Under the pieces are notes generated by a model. The model made no database searches and had not been told where the DNA came from. It was given only the letters and a program-made list of their open reading frames with translations. Both the position numbers and the translations under genes were made by a program. DNA of 64,000 bases, taken from assembly GCA_003141955.1 (NCBI GenBank), contig PLOC01000003.1:462-64461 (forward strand). The letters run 5' to 3'. Source of the DNA: Chloroflexota bacterium. Lineage in GTDB: Bacteria; Chloroflexota; Limnocylindria; Limnocylindrales; CSP1-4. This document shows, piece after piece, positions 2,131 to 30,507 of the stretch (position 1 is its first letter; each line of letters opens with the position of its first letter).

Positions 2131-4671
2131 CTACTCCAGCTCGAGCGACGCCCGCAGGCGGATGTCGCGCGACGAGGCGCCGACCTGGATCTCGAACCGG
2201 CCGGGCTCGATGCGCCAGCCGCCGCCGGCTTCGTCCCAGTAGGCAAGGTCGCGATCCTGGAGGGCGAAGACGACGTCGATGCTCTCGCCCGGCGCCAGGT
2301 GCACTGCGGTGAAGCCCTTCAGCTCGCGCGGCGGACGCCGGACCGACGACTCCAGGTCGGCCACGTAGACCTGGACGACTTCCTTGCCGGGGCGGCCACC
2401 CACGTTGCGCAGCCGAACCTTCAGCTGGGCCGAGTCGCCCGGGGGCAGGCCGTCGGCCGTGACCTCCAGCGACTCGAACTCGATGCGGGTGTAGCCCAGG
2501 CCATGGCCGAAGCAGAACCTCGGCTCGATCCCCGCGGCGTCGAAGTGGCGGTAGCCAAGGTTGACGCCCTCCGCGTAGACCAGTCTTTCTTCCGCGCCCG
2601 GCGTGGTGCTGAGCGCGGGGTAGTCGCACTCGCGGGCGGCGATCGTGAAGGGCAGGCGGCCACCCGGCTCCGACTTGCCGAGCAGGACGTCGGCCAGGGC
2701 GTTGCCGAACTCCTGGCCCGGCAGCCACGCGTACAGGACGGCGGCCACGCGATCCGCCCAGGGCAGGTCCATCGGGCAGCCGGCGTTGACGACGACGATG
2801 GTCCTCGGATTGGCCGCGGCCACGCGCTCCACGAGCTCGTTCTGGCGGCCGGGCAGCGTGACGGTCCTGCGGTCGCGGCCCTCGGATTCCCAGGCCTCGT
2901 CGTTGCCGACGACGATGATTGCCACGTCGGCCGAGGCGGCCGCGGCGGCGGCCCGAGCCAGCTGATCGCCTGCCTGAGGGGAGCGGCAGCCGATGTTCAG
3001 CTGACACGGGGAATGAGTCGCCGAATGGAGCTCGGCCGCGACCAGGACCGGCTCGCCGGCCCGAAGCTCGAACGTCCCGCCATCCTGGCTGCCTTCGAAC
3101 AGGGCCGTTGGGATGTCGGCCGCGGGCCGGGCGTCCCACAGGTCGGCCGCCACTGCGCCACCCACGAGCAGCCGCCGGCCGCCGAAGCCGCGCAGCTCGA
3201 TGTCATGCGGGCCGCTCTCAGCCGGGGTGAGCCAGCCCGACAGGCGCACGGCGAAGTCGTCCGCCTGGACGCCCTGGGGCAGGTCGCCGAATACGTGCAG
3301 CTCGCTCGAGTCGACATGCCATCTGGCGACCGGCTCGCCGGTCGGCTCCTGACCTCGGAAGAACTCGACGGTCAGGCCGGGCTGGCCGTGGAGGTCTCGC
3401 ACAGCCATTGCGGTCAGGGGCGGCAGAAACAGGTCGATACGGCAGCCCGGTTCGTGGACGATCTCCACTCCCGGAAGCGCGGCCCGAAGCCCCTCGATCG
3501 GGGTGACAGTGGGCGGGGCGGCGATGTGCGCGGCTCCGCCTCCCTGCGCGCAGGGCTTTGCCGCATTGGGCCCGATGACCGCCACCGTGCGGATGCCGGC
3601 CGGCGCGAGCGGCAGAATGCCGTCGTTGGCCAGCAGCACGAACGACTCGGCTGCGGCGCGGCGAACCAGCGCGGAAGCCGCCGCGTCGGAGAGGTGCCAG
3701 GGCTTCGCGGGATCGAGCGGCGTGCCGCCGTCGGCGCCTGGCCCGGCGGTCGCGCCCTCGGCGCCCTCGACCCGATTCGCGGCCAGCGCTCCGACGCGCG
3801 CCGCGAGAAGCAGCATCCGGCGCGCCTTGTCGTCCAGGACCGCTTCGCTCACCTCGCCCCGCCGAACCGCCCCGGCCAGCACCGCGCCGAAGAAGTGGGG
3901 GGGCCCGGGCATCTCCAGGTCTAGCCCGGCCACGGCCCCGGCCACCGTGTCATCGGCAGCGTGCCAGTCGGACATCAGCACGCCGTCCCAACCCCACTCG
4001 CCCTTGAGGATCTCGCCGACGAGATGATCCTGGTCCACGCAGTGGATTCCGTTCACGAGGTTGTAGGCGGCCATGATCGACCACGCCCCGGCGTTCACGG
4101 CGGCCTCGAACGGGACCAGGTAGACCTCGCGCAGAGTCCTCTCGTCGACCCGGCAGTCGACCGAAGTTCGATGGGTCTCTGACTCGTTGGCGACGTAGTG
4201 CTTGGGCGTGGCGGCCACCCCGGTCGACTGCATCCCCTCGACGTAGGCCGCGCCGAGCATGGCGGCCAGAACCGGGTCCTCGGAGTAGGCCTCGAAGTCC
4301 CGACCGCCCAGCGGTGAGCGGACCAGGTTGAGCACCGGCCCGAGCATGTAGTGGACGCCGGCTGACTTCGCCTCCGCGCCGATCCTGGCGGCGACCTCCC
4401 GCACCAGATCCACGTCCCAGGACGCGCCGAGGGCGGCGCCGCAGGGCGTGCAGGTGGCGGTCGAGCCGGCCGGGAAGGTCATGCCGCGGACGCCGTTCGG
4501 GCCGTCCAGCGTGACCATCGGCTCCAGGCCGATCGAGGGCGCGCCGGCGGCGTGCCAGGCGTCGATCCCGGCCGTTAGCCCAGCCTTTTCCTCGATGCCG
4601 AGGGCCCGGAGGAGCTCGTCCAGTCGTTCGGGGCTGATCGGTCTATGGGGGGCGGAGCGGTCGACCTGCAT
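2131..4671 (-). CDS. glycoside hydrolase family 3 beta-glucosidase-like protein
   Basis: 846-aa ORF with GH3 hallmarks: LGPVLNLVRSPLGGRDFEAYSEDP, KHYVANESE, the GVLMSDW nucleophile region, and the C-terminal FGHGLGYT and fibronectin-like tail. Third-codon positions are GC-rich. Confidence 0.85.
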   Translation of the reverse strand: MQVDRSAPHRPISPERLDELLRALGIEEKAGLTAGIDAWHAAGAPSIGLEPMVTLDGPNGVRGMTFPAGSTATCTPCGAALGASWDVDLVREVAARIGAEAKSAGVHYMLGPVLNLVRSPLGGRDFEAYSEDPVLAAMLGAAYVEGMQSTGVAATPKHYVANESETHRTSVDCRVDERTLREVYLVPFEAAVNAGAWSIMAAYNLVNGIHCVDQDHLVGEILKGEWGWDGVLMSDWHAADDTVAGAVAGLDLEMPGPPHFFGAVLAGAVRRGEVSEAVLDDKARRMLLLAARVGALAANRVEGAEGATAGPGADGGTPLDPAKPWHLSDAAASALVRRAAAESFVLLANDGILPLAPAGIRTVAVIGPNAAKPCAQGGGAAHIAAPPTVTPIEGLRAALPGVEIVHEPGCRIDLFLPPLTAMAVRDLHGQPGLTVEFFRGQEPTGEPVARWHVDSSELHVFGDLPQGVQADDFAVRLSGWLTPAESGPHDIELRGFGGRRLLVGGAVAADLWDARPAADIPTALFEGSQDGGTFELRAGEPVLVAAELHSATHSPCQLNIGCRSPQAGDQLARAAAAAASADVAIIVVGNDEAWESEGRDRRTVTLPGRQNELVERVAAANPRTIVVVNAGCPMDLPWADRVAAVLYAWLPGQEFGNALADVLLGKSEPGGRLPFTIAARECDYPALSTTPGAEERLVYAEGVNLGYRHFDAAGIEPRFCFGHGLGYTRIEFESLEVTADGLPPGDSAQLKVRLRNVGGRPGKEVVQVYVADLESSVRRPPRELKGFTAVHLAPGESIDVVFALQDRDLAYWDEAGGGWRIEPGRFEIQVGASSRDIRLRASLELE

Positions 4672-4793
4672 GTCGTGTCCTTCTGGGGGCGATGGCGCCT
4701 GAAATCGTAGCCCAGCCGCGGAAGGGGTGGTCGTCGCAGCGGTCGTGGCCTACCCTTGTTCGGCGTCCAGCGCAGCCGGGAAAGGGGCAGGGC

Positions 4794-5504
4794 ATGGCGA
4801 CCACGAAGAAGGGTGAGGACAACGGTCGAGCTGGCGGAGGAATCCCGGCTTCGAACGCGGGCGGCGCCTGGGGCCAGGGCCTGCCCGCCTACCCGGACTG
4901 GCTCCAGCCCTACCTGCCAGCGATGCACGACGGCTTCAACGGGTTCAACAGGTACGTCAGCGTGCCGGCCCTGAAAGCCGGCATGGGCAGGTTCGTGTCG
5001 AACCCGCTGACGGGCTACCTGATGATCCTGCGGACCCGCGGCCGTAGGAGCGGCGAGATGCGCGACGCCCCGCTCGGCTACATGATCGTCGGCGACGCTG
5101 TGTACGCCATGGCTGGCTTCGGTCGGGAGGCCCACTGGTTCAAGAACATCCAGGCGGACCCCCGGGTCGAGGTCATCCTCCCCGGTCGCGCCTTCTCGGG
5201 CACGGCCGAAGAGGTCACGGACACGGCCGAACGCCTGGCCGTCCTGCCTCCTCTTCTGCGCAGCATGGGCGGAGGCGCTGCGGCGATGGGCATGGGCAAT
5301 GTCTGGCAGATGACGCCTGAGGAGATCTCGGCCAGGTTCGACGGCCTGCCTCTGGTCCGGGTGCGGGCCACCGGCATCGCTGCGGGCCCCGAGGATCCGG
5401 GCGGCTGGTTCTGGGTCGTGCCCATCCTGTTCACGGGCTGGTGGCTGGTGCGATGGATACGAGGCCGCGGGCGCGCGCACAAAGCCCGGCGGGCGGACCG
5501 TTGA
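4794..5504 (+). CDS. deazaflavin (F420)-dependent nitroreductase family protein (DUF385/Ddn-like) with C-terminal hydrophobic tail
   Basis: Core region ...LRTRGRRSGEMRDAPLGYMIVGDAVYAMAGFGREAHWFKNIQADPRVEVILPGR... resembles the Ddn family. Start is chosen at ATG 4794 (MATTKKGEDNG) after the GAAAGGGG RBS; the ORF track extends to 4692. The C-terminus WFWVVPILFTGWWLVRWI is hydrophobic. Confidence 0.7.
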   Translation: MATTKKGEDNGRAGGGIPASNAGGAWGQGLPAYPDWLQPYLPAMHDGFNGFNRYVSVPALKAGMGRFVSNPLTGYLMILRTRGRRSGEMRDAPLGYMIVGDAVYAMAGFGREAHWFKNIQADPRVEVILPGRAFSGTAEEVTDTAERLAVLPPLLRSMGGGAAAMGMGNVWQMTPEEISARFDGLPLVRVRATGIAAGPEDPGGWFWVVPILFTGWWLVRWIRGRGRAHKARRADR

Positions 5505-6862
5505 CCGGGCCCGGCGGGACGTCTAGCGCGGACGGCGAGCCGTCGAGCCGACGCGGCCCCGCGCAACCCGGAGCCGGCGTCTTTGGCGCCGATCCGGCTC
5601 GTCGCCTCTTTGCCCGGGTCGCGTGCCTGGTCGTGGCTGTCATCGGCTGGGCCAACGTGGTGATCCTGGGGCGGGCGATGCTGTCGGCGTCGCCGCCCGA
5701 GGCTGGCTTCGACCTTCAACTCCTGCTCGACGCTGGCAAGCGCGTCGCAGCCGGCGGCTCACCGTACGACCCCAACGCGGTCGCGGCCGGGCTCCAGGCT
5801 CGCGACCTTTTCTTCTCATACCCGCCGGTCGTGGCGCAGATCTTGGCGCCGATCTCGGGTTTGCCGACGTGGCTCGTCCTGGCGGGCTGGTGCCTGGGCG
5901 CTGCAGCCGGGCTGGTCTTGATGGCTGCGCTCCTGCCGCGCTGGCCAATCGGCCGGCCCGCCCGGCCGATCGCCGACCTCTCTCTTGACACTGCGCTGCT
6001 CACACTCGCCGCGGCGCCGTTCTTCTTCCCGTTCGCGGTCGCGCTCCTGTTTGGCAACGTGGATGCCTGGTTCCCGTTCCTGTTCGGGGCGGTCGCGCTG
6101 ACCCTCGCGTCGGGTCGCGCCACTCCTTCGCGCCTGACGTCGGCGGCCGGAGGCGTGGCCCTTGCGGTCGCCTCTGCGGTGAAGCTGCACCCGGCCACGA
6201 TCGCCGTCTGGCTCGCTGCGGAACGACCGGCGCGGCCCGGCCTCCGTCGGCCCGGCCTCTTCGTCATCTGCGCGGCCGTCGCGGCGGGCGCGGCGATCCT
6301 GGCATTCAGCCTCGCCGTTGGCGGCGTTGGCCCCTGGCGCGAGTACATCGACTACCTTCGGGCGAGCGGAAATGCCGATCTGGCCTCGTCGGTGAACATC
6401 GGTCCGGCCAGCCAGCTTGCACTCCTGGCCGGCGACTCGAGTCTGGCTCGCCCGCTCGCGGTCGTTTTCGGCGTGATCGCGGTCGCCGCCACGCTCGCGT
6501 CCGCGAGGCTCTTGCGAGACCCGCTGGAGAGCTTCGGCTGGGCGGTCGTGGCCTCGCTTATCGTGCTGCCCGTGACCTGGTACCACTATCCCGTGGCGCT
6601 GGTACCGGTCGCGCTGGCGGCCTGGACTCGCAGCCGCGGAACGCCGCGCGGGCGCCGGGTCACCTGGGCGTTGATGGCGGCTCTTTTCGTGAGTGATGTC
6701 GCGATCGTGTTGCCGGTGGCGCTCTGGCTGGCCGTGGCGGTGCTGTTCGCCGCGGTTCGGTGGTCGCGCCCGCAACCGGGCCTCGAGCCTGCTCCGGACG
6801 CCGCACCGACGCCTCAGTCGGTTTCGGGCGAGGCGATCGCTCAGGTGCCGGTGCCCAGATGA
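5441..6862 (+). CDS. DUF2029 / GT87-family integral membrane glycosyltransferase (paralog a)
   Basis: Polytopic membrane protein with the DUF2029-type motif DLQLLLDAGKRVAAGGSPYD...LFFSYPP and a KLHP motif. Paralogous to 6859..7920 and 24896..25900. The start is uncertain: a TTG at 5501 overlaps the upstream stop as TTGA and is a plausible alternative. Confidence 0.7.
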   Translation: MAGAMDTRPRARAQSPAGGPLTGPGGTSSADGEPSSRRGPAQPGAGVFGADPARRLFARVACLVVAVIGWANVVILGRAMLSASPPEAGFDLQLLLDAGKRVAAGGSPYDPNAVAAGLQARDLFFSYPPVVAQILAPISGLPTWLVLAGWCLGAAAGLVLMAALLPRWPIGRPARPIADLSLDTALLTLAAAPFFFPFAVALLFGNVDAWFPFLFGAVALTLASGRATPSRLTSAAGGVALAVASAVKLHPATIAVWLAAERPARPGLRRPGLFVICAAVAAGAAILAFSLAVGGVGPWREYIDYLRASGNADLASSVNIGPASQLALLAGDSSLARPLAVVFGVIAVAATLASARLLRDPLESFGWAVVASLIVLPVTWYHYPVALVPVALAAWTRSRGTPRGRRVTWALMAALFVSDVAIVLPVALWLAVAVLFAAVRWSRPQPGLEPAPDAAPTPQSVSGEAIAQVPVPR

Positions 6863-7920
6863 GCATGTCCCGATCCGTCCGGGGGCACGGTGGGAGTTGG
6901 TCCGCAGACCTCATCGCGAGTCGCGTCGGTCGCCTGGTCCGGAGGGCGCTTGCCGAACCGCCGAGTCCACCGCTGCCTGGCGCCTCTCTGGAGCCCGGAT
7001 TCCGGCGTCGCTGGCTGGGGTTCTTCCTGCCCGGCGCGTTCATCCTGTTTTGGGTGATGACCTTCGCCGTCGGCTTCAACTCGCAAATAGTGGGCTTTGA
7101 CGCTCGCATCTACTACGACGGCTCGGCTGCCTGGCTGGCCGGCGGGAACCCGTGGACAACGGGCGCGCTCCTGGACGGACATCTGTTCAGCTATGCGGGC
7201 TTGCCCCCGACGGCGATCCTGCTTGCCCCGATGACGCTACTGCCTGAGGAAGCGTTCCTCTGGCTGTGGCTGGTTTTGTCAGTCGTGGCGGCGATCGTGA
7301 TCGTTCGAGCCCTTCGCTTGCCGGTCATCTGGGTTGTCTACCCGCCTTTGGCTATGGGCTTCATGTCGGCCAATCCGAATGTCGTTGTCGTAGCGCTCCT
7401 GCTTGCCGGCGCAACATGGGGCGGGGCTCTGGCCTCGGTAATCAAGATCGTCGCGATCCCGCCGCTCGTCGGCGAGCGCCGCTGGCGGGCGCTCCTGCTG
7501 GCGGCCACGGTCATGGGCGCATCGGCGATTCTGCTTCCAGGGCTGTGGTGGTCCTTCCTGCATCAGGCCGGGACGGTCCAGAACGCCATCAATGCCGAGT
7601 CCAGCGGCGGTTTCAGTGCCTGGGGCAAGCCGTATCTGCTCATCCCCACGGTCATCTCGCTCGGCGTCCTGGCGTTGCTCGACGTGCGGGCCGCTGCCTG
7701 GCTGGTCGTCCCGGCTCTGTTTCCGACGGCGCAGTACCACTACGCGATGTTCGCCCTTCCGGTCGACCCGTTCCTCGCCGCCTCCATGGCCTTTCCGATG
7801 TACTGGATGCCCCCACTCGCGACCATCGGCTACACGGCCGTGCGAATCGGCATCGTCGCGTGGCGGAGCTCAGGGCGTGCGAGCCCCCACCGTCCCGAGG
7901 CGCTCGGCAACTCCGAATAG
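6859..7920 (+). CDS. DUF2029 / GT87-family integral membrane glycosyltransferase (paralog b)
   Basis: Carries GFDARIYYDGSAAWLAGGNPWTTGALLDGHLFSYAGLPPT and a KIVAIPP motif, with multiple TM segments. Its ATG at 6859 overlaps the upstream stop (ATGA). Confidence 0.75.
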   Translation: MSMSRSVRGHGGSWSADLIASRVGRLVRRALAEPPSPPLPGASLEPGFRRRWLGFFLPGAFILFWVMTFAVGFNSQIVGFDARIYYDGSAAWLAGGNPWTTGALLDGHLFSYAGLPPTAILLAPMTLLPEEAFLWLWLVLSVVAAIVIVRALRLPVIWVVYPPLAMGFMSANPNVVVVALLLAGATWGGALASVIKIVAIPPLVGERRWRALLLAATVMGASAILLPGLWWSFLHQAGTVQNAINAESSGGFSAWGKPYLLIPTVISLGVLALLDVRAAAWLVVPALFPTAQYHYAMFALPVDPFLAASMAFPMYWMPPLATIGYTAVRIGIVAWRSSGRASPHRPEALGNSE

Positions 7921-26031: not shown

Positions 26032-26706
26032 GTGCCCGAACCTTCTCTGTTGCCGGCCCGCGACAGCGCCTGGCCGACGCTTCACGTGTCGCGGCATCCG
26101 GCGATCCTTCACAAGCTCCGGATCCTGCGGGACGAAAAGACCGAGCCCAAGAAGTTCCGCGAGGTCGTCCGCGAGTTGTCGTGGCTGCTCGGCTACGAGG
26201 CGCTGGCCGACGTCGAAGTCCGCCCTCTCACCGTCACCACGCCCCTCGAGACGACGGATGCCCACGAGCTGGGCGTGCGCATCGGCCTGGTACCGATCCT
26301 GCGGGCCGGCCTGGGCATGGTCGACGCCATGCTCGAGCTGATGCCCACGGCCGAGGTCTGGCATCTCGGCCTCTTCCGCGACGAGCGGACGCTGCGGCCG
26401 GTCGAGTATTACAACAAGCTGCCGGACTCGGCGACGGTGGACCTGTGCCTGATCCTGGATCCGATGCTCGCCACCGGCGGATCGGCCACGGCAGCGATCG
26501 AGGTCCTCAAACGCTGGGGCGCGACGCGGATCAAGCTCATCAACCTGATCGTGGCGCCCGAAGGCGTCGACGTCGTCACCGCCGCCCATCCCGACGTCGA
26601 GATCTACTGCGCGGCCGTGGACCGGCAACTCAACGAGCACGGCTATATCATGCCGGGCCTGGGCGACGCCGGCGACCGCCAGTTCGGGACGGGCCGGGCG
26701 GGGTAG
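26032..26706 (+). CDS. upp: uracil phosphoribosyltransferase
   Basis: [13 protein letters not shown]...[11 protein letters not shown]...[19 protein letters not shown] start follows RBS AGGGAGGAG. Confidence 0.9.
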
Positions 26707-26748
26707 CGCCCGGGCTCATCGCCAAAGAGAAGCGGGCGGCCTTTCGGG

Positions 26749-26777
26749 CCCCGGCTCGTAAGGACCGGGGATTTGCC
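26749..26777 (+). repeat. left terminal inverted repeat (itself a hairpin)
   Basis: CCCCGGCTCGTAAGGACCGGGGATTTGCC; perfect reverse complement of 29103-29131. Confidence 0.7.
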
Positions 26778-26913
26778 AGCCGGTTAGGGCACCCGAGCGT
26801 GCCATAGAAGGTGTCACACAGGACGGGCAGGATGAGGAGGTCAAACTCCCCACTCTGACCGTCCCGTTTCACGTCCGCGACTTGCCGCCCACGTCGAACG
26901 CCCGAGCTGCCCC

Positions 26914-28518
26914 ATGGCGGAGCACGCTGGCGGATACGTCTGGTTCGATGGCGTCTACTCCACGAACCAGGTGCACCAGCGAACACGCTTCAAGTGCGCG
27001 CCACACCCCGATCAGAACCAAGCGGATGGCTCACCCGGCTGGAAGCGACACCCGTTCTATGTCCAGATGCCGCGGCGAGAACCGCTCCGCACCCTGGCTA
27101 CGCTCGACCGGATCTGCGACGAGTGCGAGCACCTTCTGGTGCGTTCGGAAGGTCCCGTCACGCCGCATCGGTTCATCTTCTCGGCACGCGAGGCGGCCAA
27201 GGTTCTGGTCAAGGTTGCCACCGGCGAGACATACCGAGACGCGTCACGAGAAGTGCGCGACATCGCCAACCGCTTCGTCGCCACTGGCGCCAACGGCCAT
27301 GGCATTGCCAGCAATAACGGATCACTGGCGGCGGACTATCTCGATCTCTTCGCAGATGTCGTCTACGACCACTACAAACCCGCGGCCTGGCCGGAGATAG
27401 TGGCCCTCGACGCCCTGCCGTTCCGCGTCCGCGACTGGGTAAAGGGCAAGTCGATTCCGGGCGGCAAGCCCGTTGCCAGCATCCTCGGTGCGTTCGGATA
27501 CCCGGCTGCCGGCAAGAAGGGCCGCGTCTGGCACCTCGCCATCTCGGGCGGTCTCGACCGACTCTCGTGGGTTGCGTTCCTTCGCTCGATGCCGACCGAC
27601 CCCAACAAGCCGCCGACGTGGGTCGTGTGCGACGACGACGCGGCAATCCAGGGCGCGGTCAAGGTCGTGTGGCCCGAAGCGACGATCTACATCTCCGACG
27701 GGCACATCCAGCGCAACGGCCTTGACCGGATCCGGGGCGACTTCGGCGGGCGTCGCACGGAGGTTGAGACGGCGATCGAGCACTCGACGAGGGGTCCGGC
27801 CCAATGGGCGGCGCTCGAAACTCTGGCGGCCAGCGTGCCAGACAACGCCACCTTGATCGCTTGGATCAAGGGGAAGCGGCCCCTGATGGCGCGCCAGTTC
27901 GCGGTTGTCAGGCCGGGCCATCCGCAAGGCGCGGGCGCGCTCGAACAGTTCTTCACGGTTCTCCGCGACGCGATCGGGATCCGGCGCTACCGGTTCCGCA
28001 ACGCCGGGCGGCTCGAACGTCTCGCCAAGATGGTCGCCCTCCGTCGTGCGAAGTTGAGCGACGAACGTAGGTTCGCACGCATCATCCGCACACACCTGGA
28101 CGCACGCGCCGGCAGGGTCGGCGTCGGCTTCCGGGAGCGCGCCGATCACGATGGCGTGTCGTCCATTGCTGCGCTCGAACGCGGTGCGATTGTGCGCCGT
28201 GCCGCCGCAGTGGGCTTCAAGTTGGCGCCCGACTTCGACCCCAAGAAGGCTCGATCGCAGGTCTCGGACGCCGCGGGTCGCCATGCGGCCAAACAGCGCC
28301 TGAACGCACTTCCGCCAAGTGAGCAAAGGGCCGTGAAGGAAGCCAAGCGGGCTTACATGCGCGACTACATGGCCAAGCGACGCGAGCGCGAGGACTCCGA
28401 TCGGAAGGCGAAGGGTCTTCCGCCGATCAAACGGAAAGGCGCATACGGACCGAGGAAGCAGAAACCCTTGAGCGTCATCTCGCCCGAGGAGCTGGCCCAC
28501 CCGAGCGAGGACTTCTGA
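26914..28518 (+). CDS. MULE/IS256-related transposase with N-terminal Cys/His zinc-finger-like region
   Basis: WVVCDDDAAIQGAVKVVWPEATIYISDGHIQRN matches the IS256 DDE core (for example SVDNLKGLSEAIKAVYPQTEVQLCVVHQIRN). N-terminal region contains Cys and His residues, including RICDECEH. At 534 aa it is longer than canonical IS256 transposases. Confidence 0.55.
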   Translation: MAEHAGGYVWFDGVYSTNQVHQRTRFKCAPHPDQNQADGSPGWKRHPFYVQMPRREPLRTLATLDRICDECEHLLVRSEGPVTPHRFIFSAREAAKVLVKVATGETYRDASREVRDIANRFVATGANGHGIASNNGSLAADYLDLFADVVYDHYKPAAWPEIVALDALPFRVRDWVKGKSIPGGKPVASILGAFGYPAAGKKGRVWHLAISGGLDRLSWVAFLRSMPTDPNKPPTWVVCDDDAAIQGAVKVVWPEATIYISDGHIQRNGLDRIRGDFGGRRTEVETAIEHSTRGPAQWAALETLAASVPDNATLIAWIKGKRPLMARQFAVVRPGHPQGAGALEQFFTVLRDAIGIRRYRFRNAGRLERLAKMVALRRAKLSDERRFARIIRTHLDARAGRVGVGFRERADHDGVSSIAALERGAIVRRAAAVGFKLAPDFDPKKARSQVSDAAGRHAAKQRLNALPPSEQRAVKEAKRAYMRDYMAKRREREDSDRKAKGLPPIKRKGAYGPRKQKPLSVISPEELAHPSEDF

Positions 28519-28534
28519 CCCCTCTCCGCCGCGA

Positions 28535-28975
28535 TCAGCTCGGCAGCCAGAATGGCCACCATGGTGGCACGGTCCCGGGGCAAATGCCAGGCTGATTGAG
28601 CTTGAACGGATCCGAGTCAGTCTGTGGCAGCAGCCAGATGAACCACAGATACGCCACGATTACTGCCGCAACGAAGCCGATGACTGCCCCGGCCTTGGGC
28701 CAATAGCGCCCGAATACCGCGTCCAGAACCCCGAAGACGATCCATGTTGAGCCAAGGACTAACGGCGACGTGACCAAGAGCCGAAGGCCTTGGACCATCG
28801 ACGCTCCGGCCTGGCAATCAGCCCACGCCTTCGACAGAAGCTGCCACCAGAGGAATGTCAGGGCAACGCCGACCGCCAATCCGCCCAAACATCCTCGGGC
28901 CAGCCAATGCGGCGCAGCGACCCGACGTTGCTGCTGTGGTTCGATCTCCATTTCCATTGACTGACCCCTCGTCAT
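28535..28975 (-). CDS. small integral membrane protein (possible IS passenger)
   Basis: 146 aa with 3-4 predicted TM helices (LGGLAVGVALTFLWWQLL; WIVFGVLDAVF; VIGFVAAVIVAYLWFIWLL). Third-position GC is lower than in host genes. Confidence 0.4.
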   Translation of the reverse strand: MTRGQSMEMEIEPQQQRRVAAPHWLARGCLGGLAVGVALTFLWWQLLSKAWADCQAGASMVQGLRLLVTSPLVLGSTWIVFGVLDAVFGRYWPKAGAVIGFVAAVIVAYLWFIWLLPQTDSDPFKLNQPGICPGTVPPWWPFWLPS

Positions 28976-29102
28976 GCGCTTGCCATCAGCCTACGAGCCT
29001 CGGCGGCAGATAGCAGTCTGCGGGCCGACATGGCGCGACCGCCCAACGCGAAAAGAAGAGACCCGGCCTGCGGACAGGTCGGGTCTTGGTCTTGGACCTT
29101 CG

Positions 29103-29131
29103 GGCAAATCCCCGGTCCTTACGAGCCGGGG
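29103..29131 (+). repeat. right terminal inverted repeat
   Basis: GGCAAATCCCCGGTCCTTACGAGCCGGGG, the reverse complement of the left repeat. Confidence 0.7.
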
Positions 29132-29169
29132 GCGTCTGTGCCGCCCGTTTCGCATCTGCGAGGGTTTTG

Positions 29170-30507
29170 TCAGGAGGCCGCGGCGGGTGACTCCACCTGC
29201 GCGCCCATGCCGAACCTGTTGAGGATCTGGTAGATCACCAGGGCGCCGATGCAGGCGGTGCCGATTCCGGCCACCTGGAAGTCGCCCTGGGTGATGACGA
29301 GGTTGCCGGCACCCAGTGTCAGCGCCACTGCGGCCGTAATGAAGTTCTTGTTGTCCGTGAAGTCGACCCTGTTCTCGACCCAGATGCGGGCACCGGTGGT
29401 GGCGATCAGGCCGAAAAGGACGATCGCCATGCCGCCCAAGACGGCCTGCGGGATCGAATGAACCAGGGCCCCGAACATCGGCGAGAAGCCGAGCAGGATT
29501 GCCACGACCGCGGCGATCACGAAGACCAGGCTGGAGTAGATCTTGGTAACGGCCATGACGCCGATGTTCTCGGCGTAGGTGGTGACGCCTGTGCCGCCGC
29601 CCGAGCCCGAGACCATGGTGGCAACACCGTCAGCGAGAAAGGCACGGCCGATGTACGGATCCAGGTCGCGGCCGGTCATCGTCGCGACGGCCTTGATATG
29701 GCCCAGGTTCTCGGCCACGAGGACGATCGCCACCGGGACGATGAGGATGATGGCGTGCGTGTCGAACTGCGGCGCGGTCAGGGCCGGCCAGCCGAGCAGC
29801 TGGGCGTTGCCGATCGAATTGAGATCGATGTTGGGGCCGCCGAAATGGAGGATGTTCGAGAGAAGGCCGTACAGGCAGTAGCCGAACACGCCGCCGATGA
29901 GGATCGGCAGGCGGCGTGTCATTCCGGGGCCGTACACGGCGATGATCGCCACCGCGAGAGCGGTGATGATGCCGACGAGGATGCCAAAGTTGTCCGTCGC
30001 CGCGCGGCCCGAGGTCATGTACCCGATCGCGGAAGGCGCGAGGTTCAGGCCGACCACCGCGACCACGGCCCCGGTCACGACCGGGGGCATCAGGAACTCG
30101 ACCCATTTGTACCCGACCGCCATGACGATCAGGCCGATCACGGCGTACACCGCACCGCAGGCGATGATGCCGCCCAGGGCGACCGGGATGTTGTGGCCGC
30201 CGCCGATGGCCTCAGCCGACATGACCACGGCGATGAACGAGAAGCTCGAGCCGAGGTAGCTCGGAACCCGGCCGCGGACGAAGACGAAGAAGATCAGCGT
30301 TCCGATTCCCGAGAAGAAGATGGCCGTGTTCGGGTTGAAACCCATGATGACCGGCGCCAGCACCGTCGCCCCGAACATGGCGAAGATGTGCTGGATGCCC
30401 AGCGCCACCGATTGCCCGGCCGGCGGCCGCTCGTCCGGGGCGATGATGCCTTCCCGTTTGACGGTCCACTGGAACATGCCACGGACATACCCGATGGCAG
30501 CAGCCAT
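29170..30507 (-). CDS. uraA: NCS2-family nucleobase permease (uracil/xanthine permease type)
   Basis: 445 aa, about 12 TM helices, NCS2 signature regions (QHIFAMFGATVLAP; AENLGHIKAV). Strong RBS (GGAGGAGG). Convergent with upp. Confidence 0.8.
   Translation of the reverse strand: MAAAIGYVRGMFQWTVKREGIIAPDERPPAGQSVALGIQHIFAMFGATVLAPVIMGFNPNTAIFFSGIGTLIFFVFVRGRVPSYLGSSFSFIAVVMSAEAIGGGHNIPVALGGIIACGAVYAVIGLIVMAVGYKWVEFLMPPVVTGAVVAVVGLNLAPSAIGYMTSGRAATDNFGILVGIITALAVAIIAVYGPGMTRRLPILIGGVFGYCLYGLLSNILHFGGPNIDLNSIGNAQLLGWPALTAPQFDTHAIILIVPVAIVLVAENLGHIKAVATMTGRDLDPYIGRAFLADGVATMVSGSGGGTGVTTYAENIGVMAVTKIYSSLVFVIAAVVAILLGFSPMFGALVHSIPQAVLGGMAIVLFGLIATTGARIWVENRVDFTDNKNFITAAVALTLGAGNLVITQGDFQVAGIGTACIGALVIYQILNRFGMGAQVESPAAAS

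Follow-up and report, generated by a model that had tools for sequence, protein, structure and literature searches.

A probable insertion sequence with a Mutator-like transposase and one passenger gene in the upp/uraA hairpin of a Chloroflexota bacterium

Insertion sequences (IS) of the IS256 family, as listed in ISfinder, are 1.2–1.5 kb in length and carry a single open reading frame (ORF). IS that insert into the loops of palindromic hairpins, including those of repetitive extragenic palindromic (REP) sequences, are known from the IS3 family (IS1397 and ISKpn1) and from REP-targeting elements of the IS110 type, and structures that bury a start codon are a known IS device against activation by read-through transcription. 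IS that carry passenger genes are said to have been termed ‘transporter IS’ by Siguier, Gagnevin and Chandler in 2009. ISCth4, the element whose transposase is the best match to the one described here, is 1,503 bp in length and prefers A/T-rich sites, and TGTAAA has been described as a subterminal motif of the IS256 family (PMC7780238). In the scheme of Guerillot et al. (2014; PMC3942029), p-MULT 1 comprises IS256 and p-MULT 2 comprises ISH6. Here, we analyzed a 64,000-nucleotide stretch of DNA from a Chloroflexota bacterium of the Limnocylindrales (GenBank assembly GCA_003141955.1, contig PLOC01000003.1, positions 462 to 64,461; hereafter, the window), in which an earlier reading made from the letters alone (the sequence-only reading) had placed an IS-like insertion between the convergent genes upp and uraA. 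Our results give high confidence that positions 26749–29131 are an IS with one passenger gene and a Mutator-like transposase and that it landed in the upp/uraA hairpin, and they suggest that this copy is probably immobile or decaying.

Empty sites, ends and origin of the segment

The two genes that converge on the segment are upp (PF14681, E 1e-74) and uraA, which encodes a uracil/RutG-type permease (PF00860, E 2e-86). Two relatives with this neighborhood lack the segment and have an intact hairpin instead. In the first (L035; loci of relatives are denoted by such numbers), UraA is 91% identical to that of the window, and the gene order (FGGY kinase, apurinic/apyrimidinic endonuclease, cation ATPase, uraA, upp, GT87, lysine aminomutase) is the same. 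Its uraA-upp spacer is only 93 nt in length and comprises a single long hairpin, GAAGCGGGCGGCC...GGCCGCCCGCTTC, with a folding energy of -50.7 kcal/mol. In the second (L032; UraA 93% identical), GAAGCGGGCGGCC-AGGC-GGCCGCCCGCTTC adjoins uraA, which is the same stem with a 4-nt loop; this hairpin folds at -40 to -43 kcal/mol (z -3 to -4 in a shuffle control run on L032). When positions 26749–29131 are deleted in silico, the window is colinear with both relatives across the whole interval between the upp and uraA stop codons, and the passenger gene is missing from the empty sites along with the transposase gene. These empty sites in syntenic relatives establish the segment as an IS-like insertion, as the sequence-only reading had proposed. 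The closest named relatives of UraA (81–82% identity) were from metagenome-assembled genomes (MAGs) of ‘Candidatus Limnocylindrales’.

The base composition of the segment, which had been described as noticeably lower in GC, differs modestly in bulk (0.653 versus a window mean of 0.685, sd 0.021; 7% of intervals of equal size are equally low). A clear difference emerges only at third codon positions (GC3), with values of 0.80 and 0.71 in the two genes of the element versus 0.90–0.91 in upp and uraA, and this contrast with the neighboring genes suggests that the element is foreign. That the segment is instead ordinary conserved chromosomal content, with inverted repeats that are coincidental or structural, would agree with the observation that the retrieved contigs carrying the protein all show the same locus. 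However, the two closest syntenic relatives lack the segment, its GC3 is foreign, and homologous elements occur in unrelated contexts, making this explanation scarcely credible.

The position of the insertion relative to the native hairpin could be resolved from the same comparison. The native hairpin terminator of upp/uraA is represented in the window by a left arm (GAAGCGGGCGGCC; 26729..26741, + strand) and a right arm (TGCCGCCCGTTTC; 29139..29151, + strand). Both arms are host DNA that aligns colinearly with the unbroken hairpins of L032 and L035, and they are now 2.4 kb apart. These observations show that the element landed in the apical part of a strong hairpin serving as the upp/uraA terminator. 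The hairpin arm is not a repeated family within the window. The apex or loop of the native hairpin ranges from 4 to 28 nt among relatives, and because of this variation the sequence that preceded the insertion is not reconstructable.

The spacer also differs between the relatives themselves. In L032, a gene for a GGDEF diguanylate cyclase and a 101-aa ORF (6336–7594, 1.2 kb) lie between upp and the terminator hairpin, at a position that corresponds to approximately 26707–26728 of the window, and nothing is found at this position in the window or in L035. This insert, found in L032 only, suggests that genes are gained and lost at a hotspot in the upp-uraA spacer.

At the ends of the segment, the 29-mer CCCCGGCTCGTAAGGACCGGGGATTTGCC occurs in two exact inverted copies, one at 26749..26777 on the + strand (identified by exact-match search and by a core shared with relatives) and one at 29103..29131 on the - strand (exact-match search and repeat finder), with 0 mismatches each and 0 copies expected by chance in the whole window. 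No further copies were detected in the window when up to three mismatches were allowed, with 0 chance matches expected. The repeats delimit a span of 2,383 bp with two ORFs between them. A 16-nt core of the repeat, TCGTAAGGACCGGGGA (26756–26771, + strand), is shared without change by both ends of L013 and by the left ends of L011 and L019, which are elements with transposases 56–57% identical to that of the window. Specifically, L013 (57%) is bounded by 36-bp inverted repeats (CCCCCTGATCGTAAGGACCGGGGAGAAC...), the left end of L011 (56%) is CCCCCCCGCTCGTAAGGACCGGGGA, and L019 is the same element as L013 in a different context, adjoining a MerR gene. L013 and L019 are 100% identical inward of the C-run and unrelated outward of it, which places the tip of the element where the sequence-only reading had put it, to within 2 nt on either side. 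On this comparative evidence, the 29-mers are the element's own terminal inverted repeats. Inverted symmetry extends outward from the repeats (26719–26784 and 29096–29161; 66 nt, 77%, by repeat finder) because the host hairpin was split at its tip by the element. We rejected this outer symmetry as a set of longer terminal repeats, given that its outer portion, which aligns with the empty sites, belongs to the host and that L013 and L019 diverge sharply beyond the C-run.

An alternative is that the 29-mers are host hairpins, either REP-like or terminators of upp and uraA, that simply border a transposase gene, or were captured by one, much as REP sequences border RAYT genes. Each 29-mer can form a CCCCGG/CCGGGG stem (6+2 pairs, -14.6 kcal/mol), the element lies between convergent genes, where terminators are expected, and solo copies of the repeat (31–33 nt, ~90% identical to that of the window) occur in intergenic DNA elsewhere (L016, 904–936; L017, 3831–3863; L018, 5642–5672). 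L016 and L017 represent one site between convergent genes, whereas L018 is from an Acidobacteriaceae MAG in a different phylum. However, the 29-mer does not exceed shuffled sequence in folding stability (z -0.2 and -0.9), has a 10-nt loop with only ATTT directly after the hairpin (an AUUUGCC tail and no U-tract), and received no call in a terminator scan. Moreover, the stem is not conserved, with a C-C or U-C mismatch in L011, L013, and L017, and the core is kept at the ends of elements that have diverged transposases and unrelated flanks. No 29-mer is present at the empty sites of L035 and L032, the window holds only two copies, and the true host terminator is a different hairpin that was split by the insertion. 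Host hairpins are thus a very unlikely source of the 29-mers. Regarding the earlier proposals, the repeats do fold as hairpins, but at shuffle-level stability, and the suggestions that they act as terminators or represent a captured terminator did not hold up; nor did they prove to be a common REP-like sequence, their core being tied to transposase-bearing elements.

Because its stem is not conserved, the terminal repeat looks like a putative protein-binding site rather than a structure. A scan of positions 26600–29300 against Rfam by E-value returned nothing relevant, which suggests that the repeat is not a known RNA motif. Exact-pattern scans for the core identified one distinct solo site on two contigs among metagenome contigs and one among genome contigs; these public contig collections yielded solo copies only and no new full element. 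Neither a second repeat (up to three mismatches) nor a transposase remnant (tblastn) was found near the solo copies, which are read as relics. In L017, the solo repeat is followed by a terminator resembling that at the right end of the window element. Searches of plasmids (tblastn) and of viral contigs yielded no relatives.

The transposase clade and its passenger slot

The transposase gene (26914..28518, + strand) encodes a 534-aa protein with putative catalytic residues D166, D240, and E344 and a Cys/His cluster comprising C28, H46, C68, and C71. Close relatives were few, comprising 7 clusters in a word-indexed search of 5.8 billion proteins. A family profile built from six members was then searched against 1.84 billion proteins and recovered 1,196 cluster representatives (clustering at 50% identity), of which 280, mostly full-length, had E<=1e-30. 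In an alignment of 50 family sequences, D166, D240, E344, N363, and R366 were invariant (50/50), C28 and H46 were present in all 50, and C68 and C71 were present in 49.

When the family profile was searched against the PDB, it matched 6xg8, the ISCth4 ‘Mutator family transposase’ (E 4e-4). An AlphaFold (AF2) model generated from the 50-sequence alignment had a mean predicted local distance difference test score (pLDDT) of 91 and a predicted template modeling score (pTM) of 0.86; it superseded a first model from 6 sequences in which the N-terminus was poor (pLDDT 64). The top five Foldseek matches in the PDB were all chains of the ISCth4 transposase (E 3.6e-9 to 4.7e-7, probability 1.0, TM-score 0.50–0.55 on target). 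Together, the invariant triad and the profile and fold matches to ISCth4 indicate, at the level of alignment and model, that the window protein is a Mutator/IS256-superfamily DDE transposase. The earlier assignment of the 534-aa protein as MULE/IS256-related is therefore sustained, as a distant relationship.

Matches of the 50 family members to curated models were distributed among MULE (26 members), IS256 (26), IS1249 (24), Transposase_mut (13), and ISH6 (6), and none matched the ISLre2 or ISKra4 models. The best E-values among these relatives were 1.3e-10 for IS256 (NF033543), 6e-9 for IS1249, 1e-7 for Transposase_mut (PF00872), and 1.6e-6 for MULE (PF10551). As judged from these profile comparisons, the transposase clade is large, is missed by curated Pfam and NCBIfam models, and has IS256, IS1249, and ISH6 as its nearest neighbors.

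By analogy and from the conserved features, a mode of action can be proposed. The repeat core TCGTAAGGACCGGGGA would be recognized by the N-terminal Cys/His and helical domains, and DNA would be cut and joined by D166, D240, and E344 in an RNase-H fold, as predicted from their conservation and from the modeled fold. If the enzyme works as those of IS256 and ISCth4 do, transposition may proceed by copy-out/paste-in through a circular intermediate. At the C-terminus, 18 of the 50 family members, all distant (e.g., P0153 and P0167–P0169), have DUF4379 treble-clef zinc-finger repeats; the window protein instead ends in a Lys/Arg-rich helical tail of ~130 aa.

The passenger gene (28535..28975, - strand), identified from the ORF list and by hydrophobicity, encodes a small membrane protein of 146 aa (140 aa from the second Met) with 3–4 hydrophobic (transmembrane) segments; the sequence-only reading had likewise noted a 146-aa membrane protein. 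Homologs were identified at 44–80% identity, including one on a 1.4-Mb NCBI contig. The two-gene layout is repeated in L011, L012, and L013, and in all four element types identified the second gene is convergent with the transposase gene and lies 3–19 nt from its stop codon. The four passenger products are mutually unrelated, comprising two membrane proteins (146 and 193 aa), a lipoprotein-like protein of 215 aa, and a soluble protein of 221 aa, and the passengers of all element types matched no Pfam, NCBIfam, or PADLOC family.

Targets, terminators and the state of this copy

A sister subfamily with transposases 37–39% identical to the window protein (L012 and L020–L030) is informative regarding mobility and target choice. 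One identical 482-aa sister protein was found in five or more contexts, in each case accompanied by 40-bp repeats (GAAGTAACGCGCC...) and by a convergent gene for a 215-aa product. Target-site duplications are clean at three sites, namely GCAATCGGA, CACGGTGA, and CGGCGGAG, which are 9, 8, and 8 bp in L020, L029, and L030, respectively; the copies in the latter two span 327–2650 and 2947–5269. CTGAG is found 8–9 nt before the element in 4 of 5 distinct left flanks and CTCAG 8–9 nt after it in 4 of 6 distinct right flanks, as compared to a background of 0.0015 per position for either pentamer. This excess indicates that the sister subfamily inserts at the center of CTGAG-N8-CTCAG. Collectively, these observations show that the sister subfamily is mobile, generates 8–9 bp duplications, and inserts at palindrome centers. 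They also suggest that a preference for palindrome centers is probably a trait of the family, and the location of the window element in the apex of a GC-rich hairpin, a single site, fits this habit.

Many metagenome contigs with sister elements are chimeric between copies, such that the left and right flanks derive from different sites. One sister insertion site lies directly beside an IS1595-family transposase gene with Zn_ribbon_IS1595 and DDE_Tnp_IS1595 domains (L020, 9–1112; L025, 2–913; L026, 2–952), which suggests an IS-rich region. The sequence GTCTG recurs in three flanks and was treated as a probable coincidence or a weak target preference.

At the right end, the window element carries a predicted intrinsic terminator of canonical form, AGACCCGACCUG-UCCG-CAGGCCGGGUCU followed by CUUCUUUU (29051..29086, - strand), identified by terminator scan and folding. 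The scan call is at 29075–29061 (- strand), and the full stem extends over 29086–29059, with CUUCUUUU after it; the 136-nt right end folds at -60.4 kcal/mol (z -3.2). This terminator is separate from the terminal repeat, lies 45–80 nt inside the right end, and faces incoming transcription from uraA, where it would stop read-through. The element thus brought its own terminator, the function of which is predicted, to a site where that of the host was destroyed. In L013 (3760–3823) and L019 (5820–5867, where the contig breaks), the position that corresponds to the inward-facing terminator of the window element, just within the right end, is occupied by a long perfect hairpin, GGCCGGCCGGTCCA..TGGACCGGCCGGCC.

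A second structure, a conserved 44-nt hairpin identified by folding and covariation, lies near the left end, directly 5' of the ancestral start of the transposase (26821..26864, + strand). In a 106-nt context it folds at -42 kcal/mol (z -2.3), and its counterparts in L013 (1360–1411) and L011 (89–140) have z values of -4.4 and -4.1, respectively. Four of its 17 pairs show compensatory changes among the three sequences (window, L013, and L011), and the GTG start codon in L013 lies at the end of the 3' arm. The hairpin probably masks the start codon and so keeps translation of read-through transcripts low. The inward terminator near the right end and the start-burying hairpin near the left end may together protect the element from outside transcription.

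The retrieved loci, 10 out of 22 contigs that carry the window protein, were all at the same site (10/10) and differed by at most one single-nucleotide polymorphism over the element and 60 nt on each side. One contig with an identical element belongs to MAG GCA_003154815.1. Relatives of the transposase start 17 codons upstream of the window ORF, at GTG or TTG, and begin MPRPR..RPxCPxxxH. In the window, an in-frame remnant of this ancestral N-terminus, VSRPRLAAHVERPSCP (26866..26913, + strand), was recognized by alignment with relatives; it has GTT at the position of the ancestral GTG, and there is no in-frame start codon before ATG 26914. Owing to this change from GTG to GTT, the conserved N-terminal Cys is encoded but not translatable. 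A CPxxH pattern is present at the N-terminus in 25 of the 50 relatives, and by eye ~37 of 50 have an N-terminal Cys followed by a nearby His; most of the relatives that lack these residues look truncated by gene calling.

Several points count against the interpretation of the segment as an IS of this family. On its own, the window protein is below the thresholds of MULE (PF10551; E 0.0086, 16.9 versus a cut-off of 27.6 bits), Transposase_mut (PF00872; E 0.11, 11.7 versus 21 bits), and IS256 (NF033543; E 0.042, 12.8 versus 150 bits). The N-terminal Cys/His region, which the sequence-only reading had called zinc-finger-like, is real and family-wide, with binding of zinc predicted from conservation alone, and the clade may already carry a name in ISfinder. 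In the window-type subfamily, one complete copy with both flanks is the sole basis for its target preference and duplication length. The search for a target-site duplication, recommended earlier, found none at the window copy, where the flanks CTTTCGGG (left) and GCGTCTGT (right) contain no direct repeat, unlike the 8–9 bp duplications made by the sister subfamily and IS256 elements. When the assumed ends were moved slightly, by a few bases inside the C/G runs, only chance-level matches of 1–4 bp appeared, and such a duplication was rejected.

The single copy at one site, the absence of a duplication, and the lost start suggest that the IS copy in the window is probably immobile or decaying, and we lean toward immobility over continued movement. 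A fully active IS, with a working enzyme translated from ATG 26914 and a missing duplication due to a stagger of 0–2 bp that is peculiar to the subfamily or to later IS-mediated rearrangement, is a possibility that we regard as rather doubtful. In its favor, the 534-aa frame, the perfect 29-bp repeats, the catalytic triad, and C28, H46, C68, and C71 are all intact, GC3 shows no drift towards the host value, and the variable hairpin loop of relatives leaves the pre-insertion sequence uncertain. Yet only one copy is found in the 22 contigs, with all retrieved contexts representing one site, the ancestral start codon and the conserved N-terminal Cys have been lost, and duplications are clear in the sister subfamily.

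Retention of the copy might also reflect co-option by the host, if the element, after destroying the native bidirectional terminator, supplies termination of uraA through its internal terminator, and perhaps that of upp through the repeat and pre-start hairpins, or supplies the membrane protein. Across samples, the copy is fixed with hardly any variation, the canonical terminator faces uraA while the arms of the native hairpin are far apart, and the transposase start codon was lost while the repeats stayed perfect. However, a low-diversity population can fix a copy without selection, upp is not followed by a canonical terminator, and inward terminators and start-burying structures are ordinary self-protection of IS. 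Co-option is improbable.

A broader proposal is that the window element belongs to an unnamed prokaryotic IS family of the Mutator superfamily, with ~1,200 cluster representatives at 50% identity, that is defined by a Cys/His (zinc) N-terminal DNA-binding domain, a fixed slot for a single cargo gene that differs by lineage, and targeting of the centers of palindromes or terminator hairpins, and that the fixed, start-codon-less copy in the window was kept as its inward terminator replaces the destroyed hairpin. We offer this proposal as speculative and, taken as a whole, unlikely. For the genome itself, the insertion is a small matter, in that a terminator between two pyrimidine-salvage genes was disrupted and a membrane-protein gene was brought in. 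However, a sizeable transposase clade lies below Pfam and NCBIfam thresholds, and its members are consequently annotated as ‘hypothetical protein’, while they appear to aim at palindrome centers and to shuttle variable single-gene cargo. A name and a model for the clade would allow IS to be better annotated in environmental genomes that are Chloroflexota-like or otherwise high in GC, and the clade offers a tractable case for how a Mutator-type enzyme reads palindromic targets.

Comparison with described insertion sequences

The window element shares with the IS256 family a DDE transposase with a predicted RNase-H fold, for which ISCth4 is the best match in both structure and PDB profile, and a D..D..E triad followed by a conserved N/R motif. 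Its terminal inverted repeats, at ~30 bp with a GTAA core, may also be of the kind seen in that family, where they measure ~25–40 bp and contain the subterminal TGTAAA motif; the repeats of the window are perfect over 29 bp, and their core holds CGTAAG, which agrees with TGTAAA at 4 of 6 positions, while the sister repeat holds AGTAAC. Duplications of 8–9 bp in the sister subfamily are comparable to the 8-bp duplications made by ISCth4. Conversely, the window protein scores far below the IS256, Transposase_mut, and MULE cut-offs and has two additions, a Cys/His domain of ~90 aa at the N-terminus and a helical extension of ~130 aa at the C-terminus. The element is 2.4 kb in length with a convergent passenger gene, its tips are C-runs, and this copy lacks a duplication. 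The insertion of its relatives at palindrome centers further differs from the site preference of ISCth4.

In the scheme described in PMC3942029, p-MULT 1 (IS256) and p-MULT 2 (ISH6) are the groups closest to the window enzyme, though it falls outside every curated model. Similarity to the IS1249 group and the ISH6 family is limited to weak profile matches, in 24 and 6 of the 50 family members, respectively; no member is near the curated cut-offs, and the window protein itself has no match to either model at E<=1.

As in ‘transporter IS’, a single gene that is not involved in transposition lies inside the terminal repeats and varies between related elements. In this family, however, the passenger is always in the same convergent slot, and none is a resistance gene or a known accessory gene. 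The window element resembles IS1397, ISKpn1, and the IS110-type elements in that its insertion point is near the apex of a strong palindromic hairpin, with relatives at the center of CTGAG-N8-CTCAG, but its transposase is of a different class and its targets are not a dispersed repeat family. It differs from the REP/RAYT arrangement in having only two repeat copies in the window (64 kb, up to three mismatches) and in encoding a DDE enzyme rather than an HUH/tyrosine enzyme. Collectively, these comparisons place the element as an IS of a known general kind that comes from an uncurated clade and is unusual in its Cys/His N-terminal domain, its cargo slot, and its targeting of palindrome centers.

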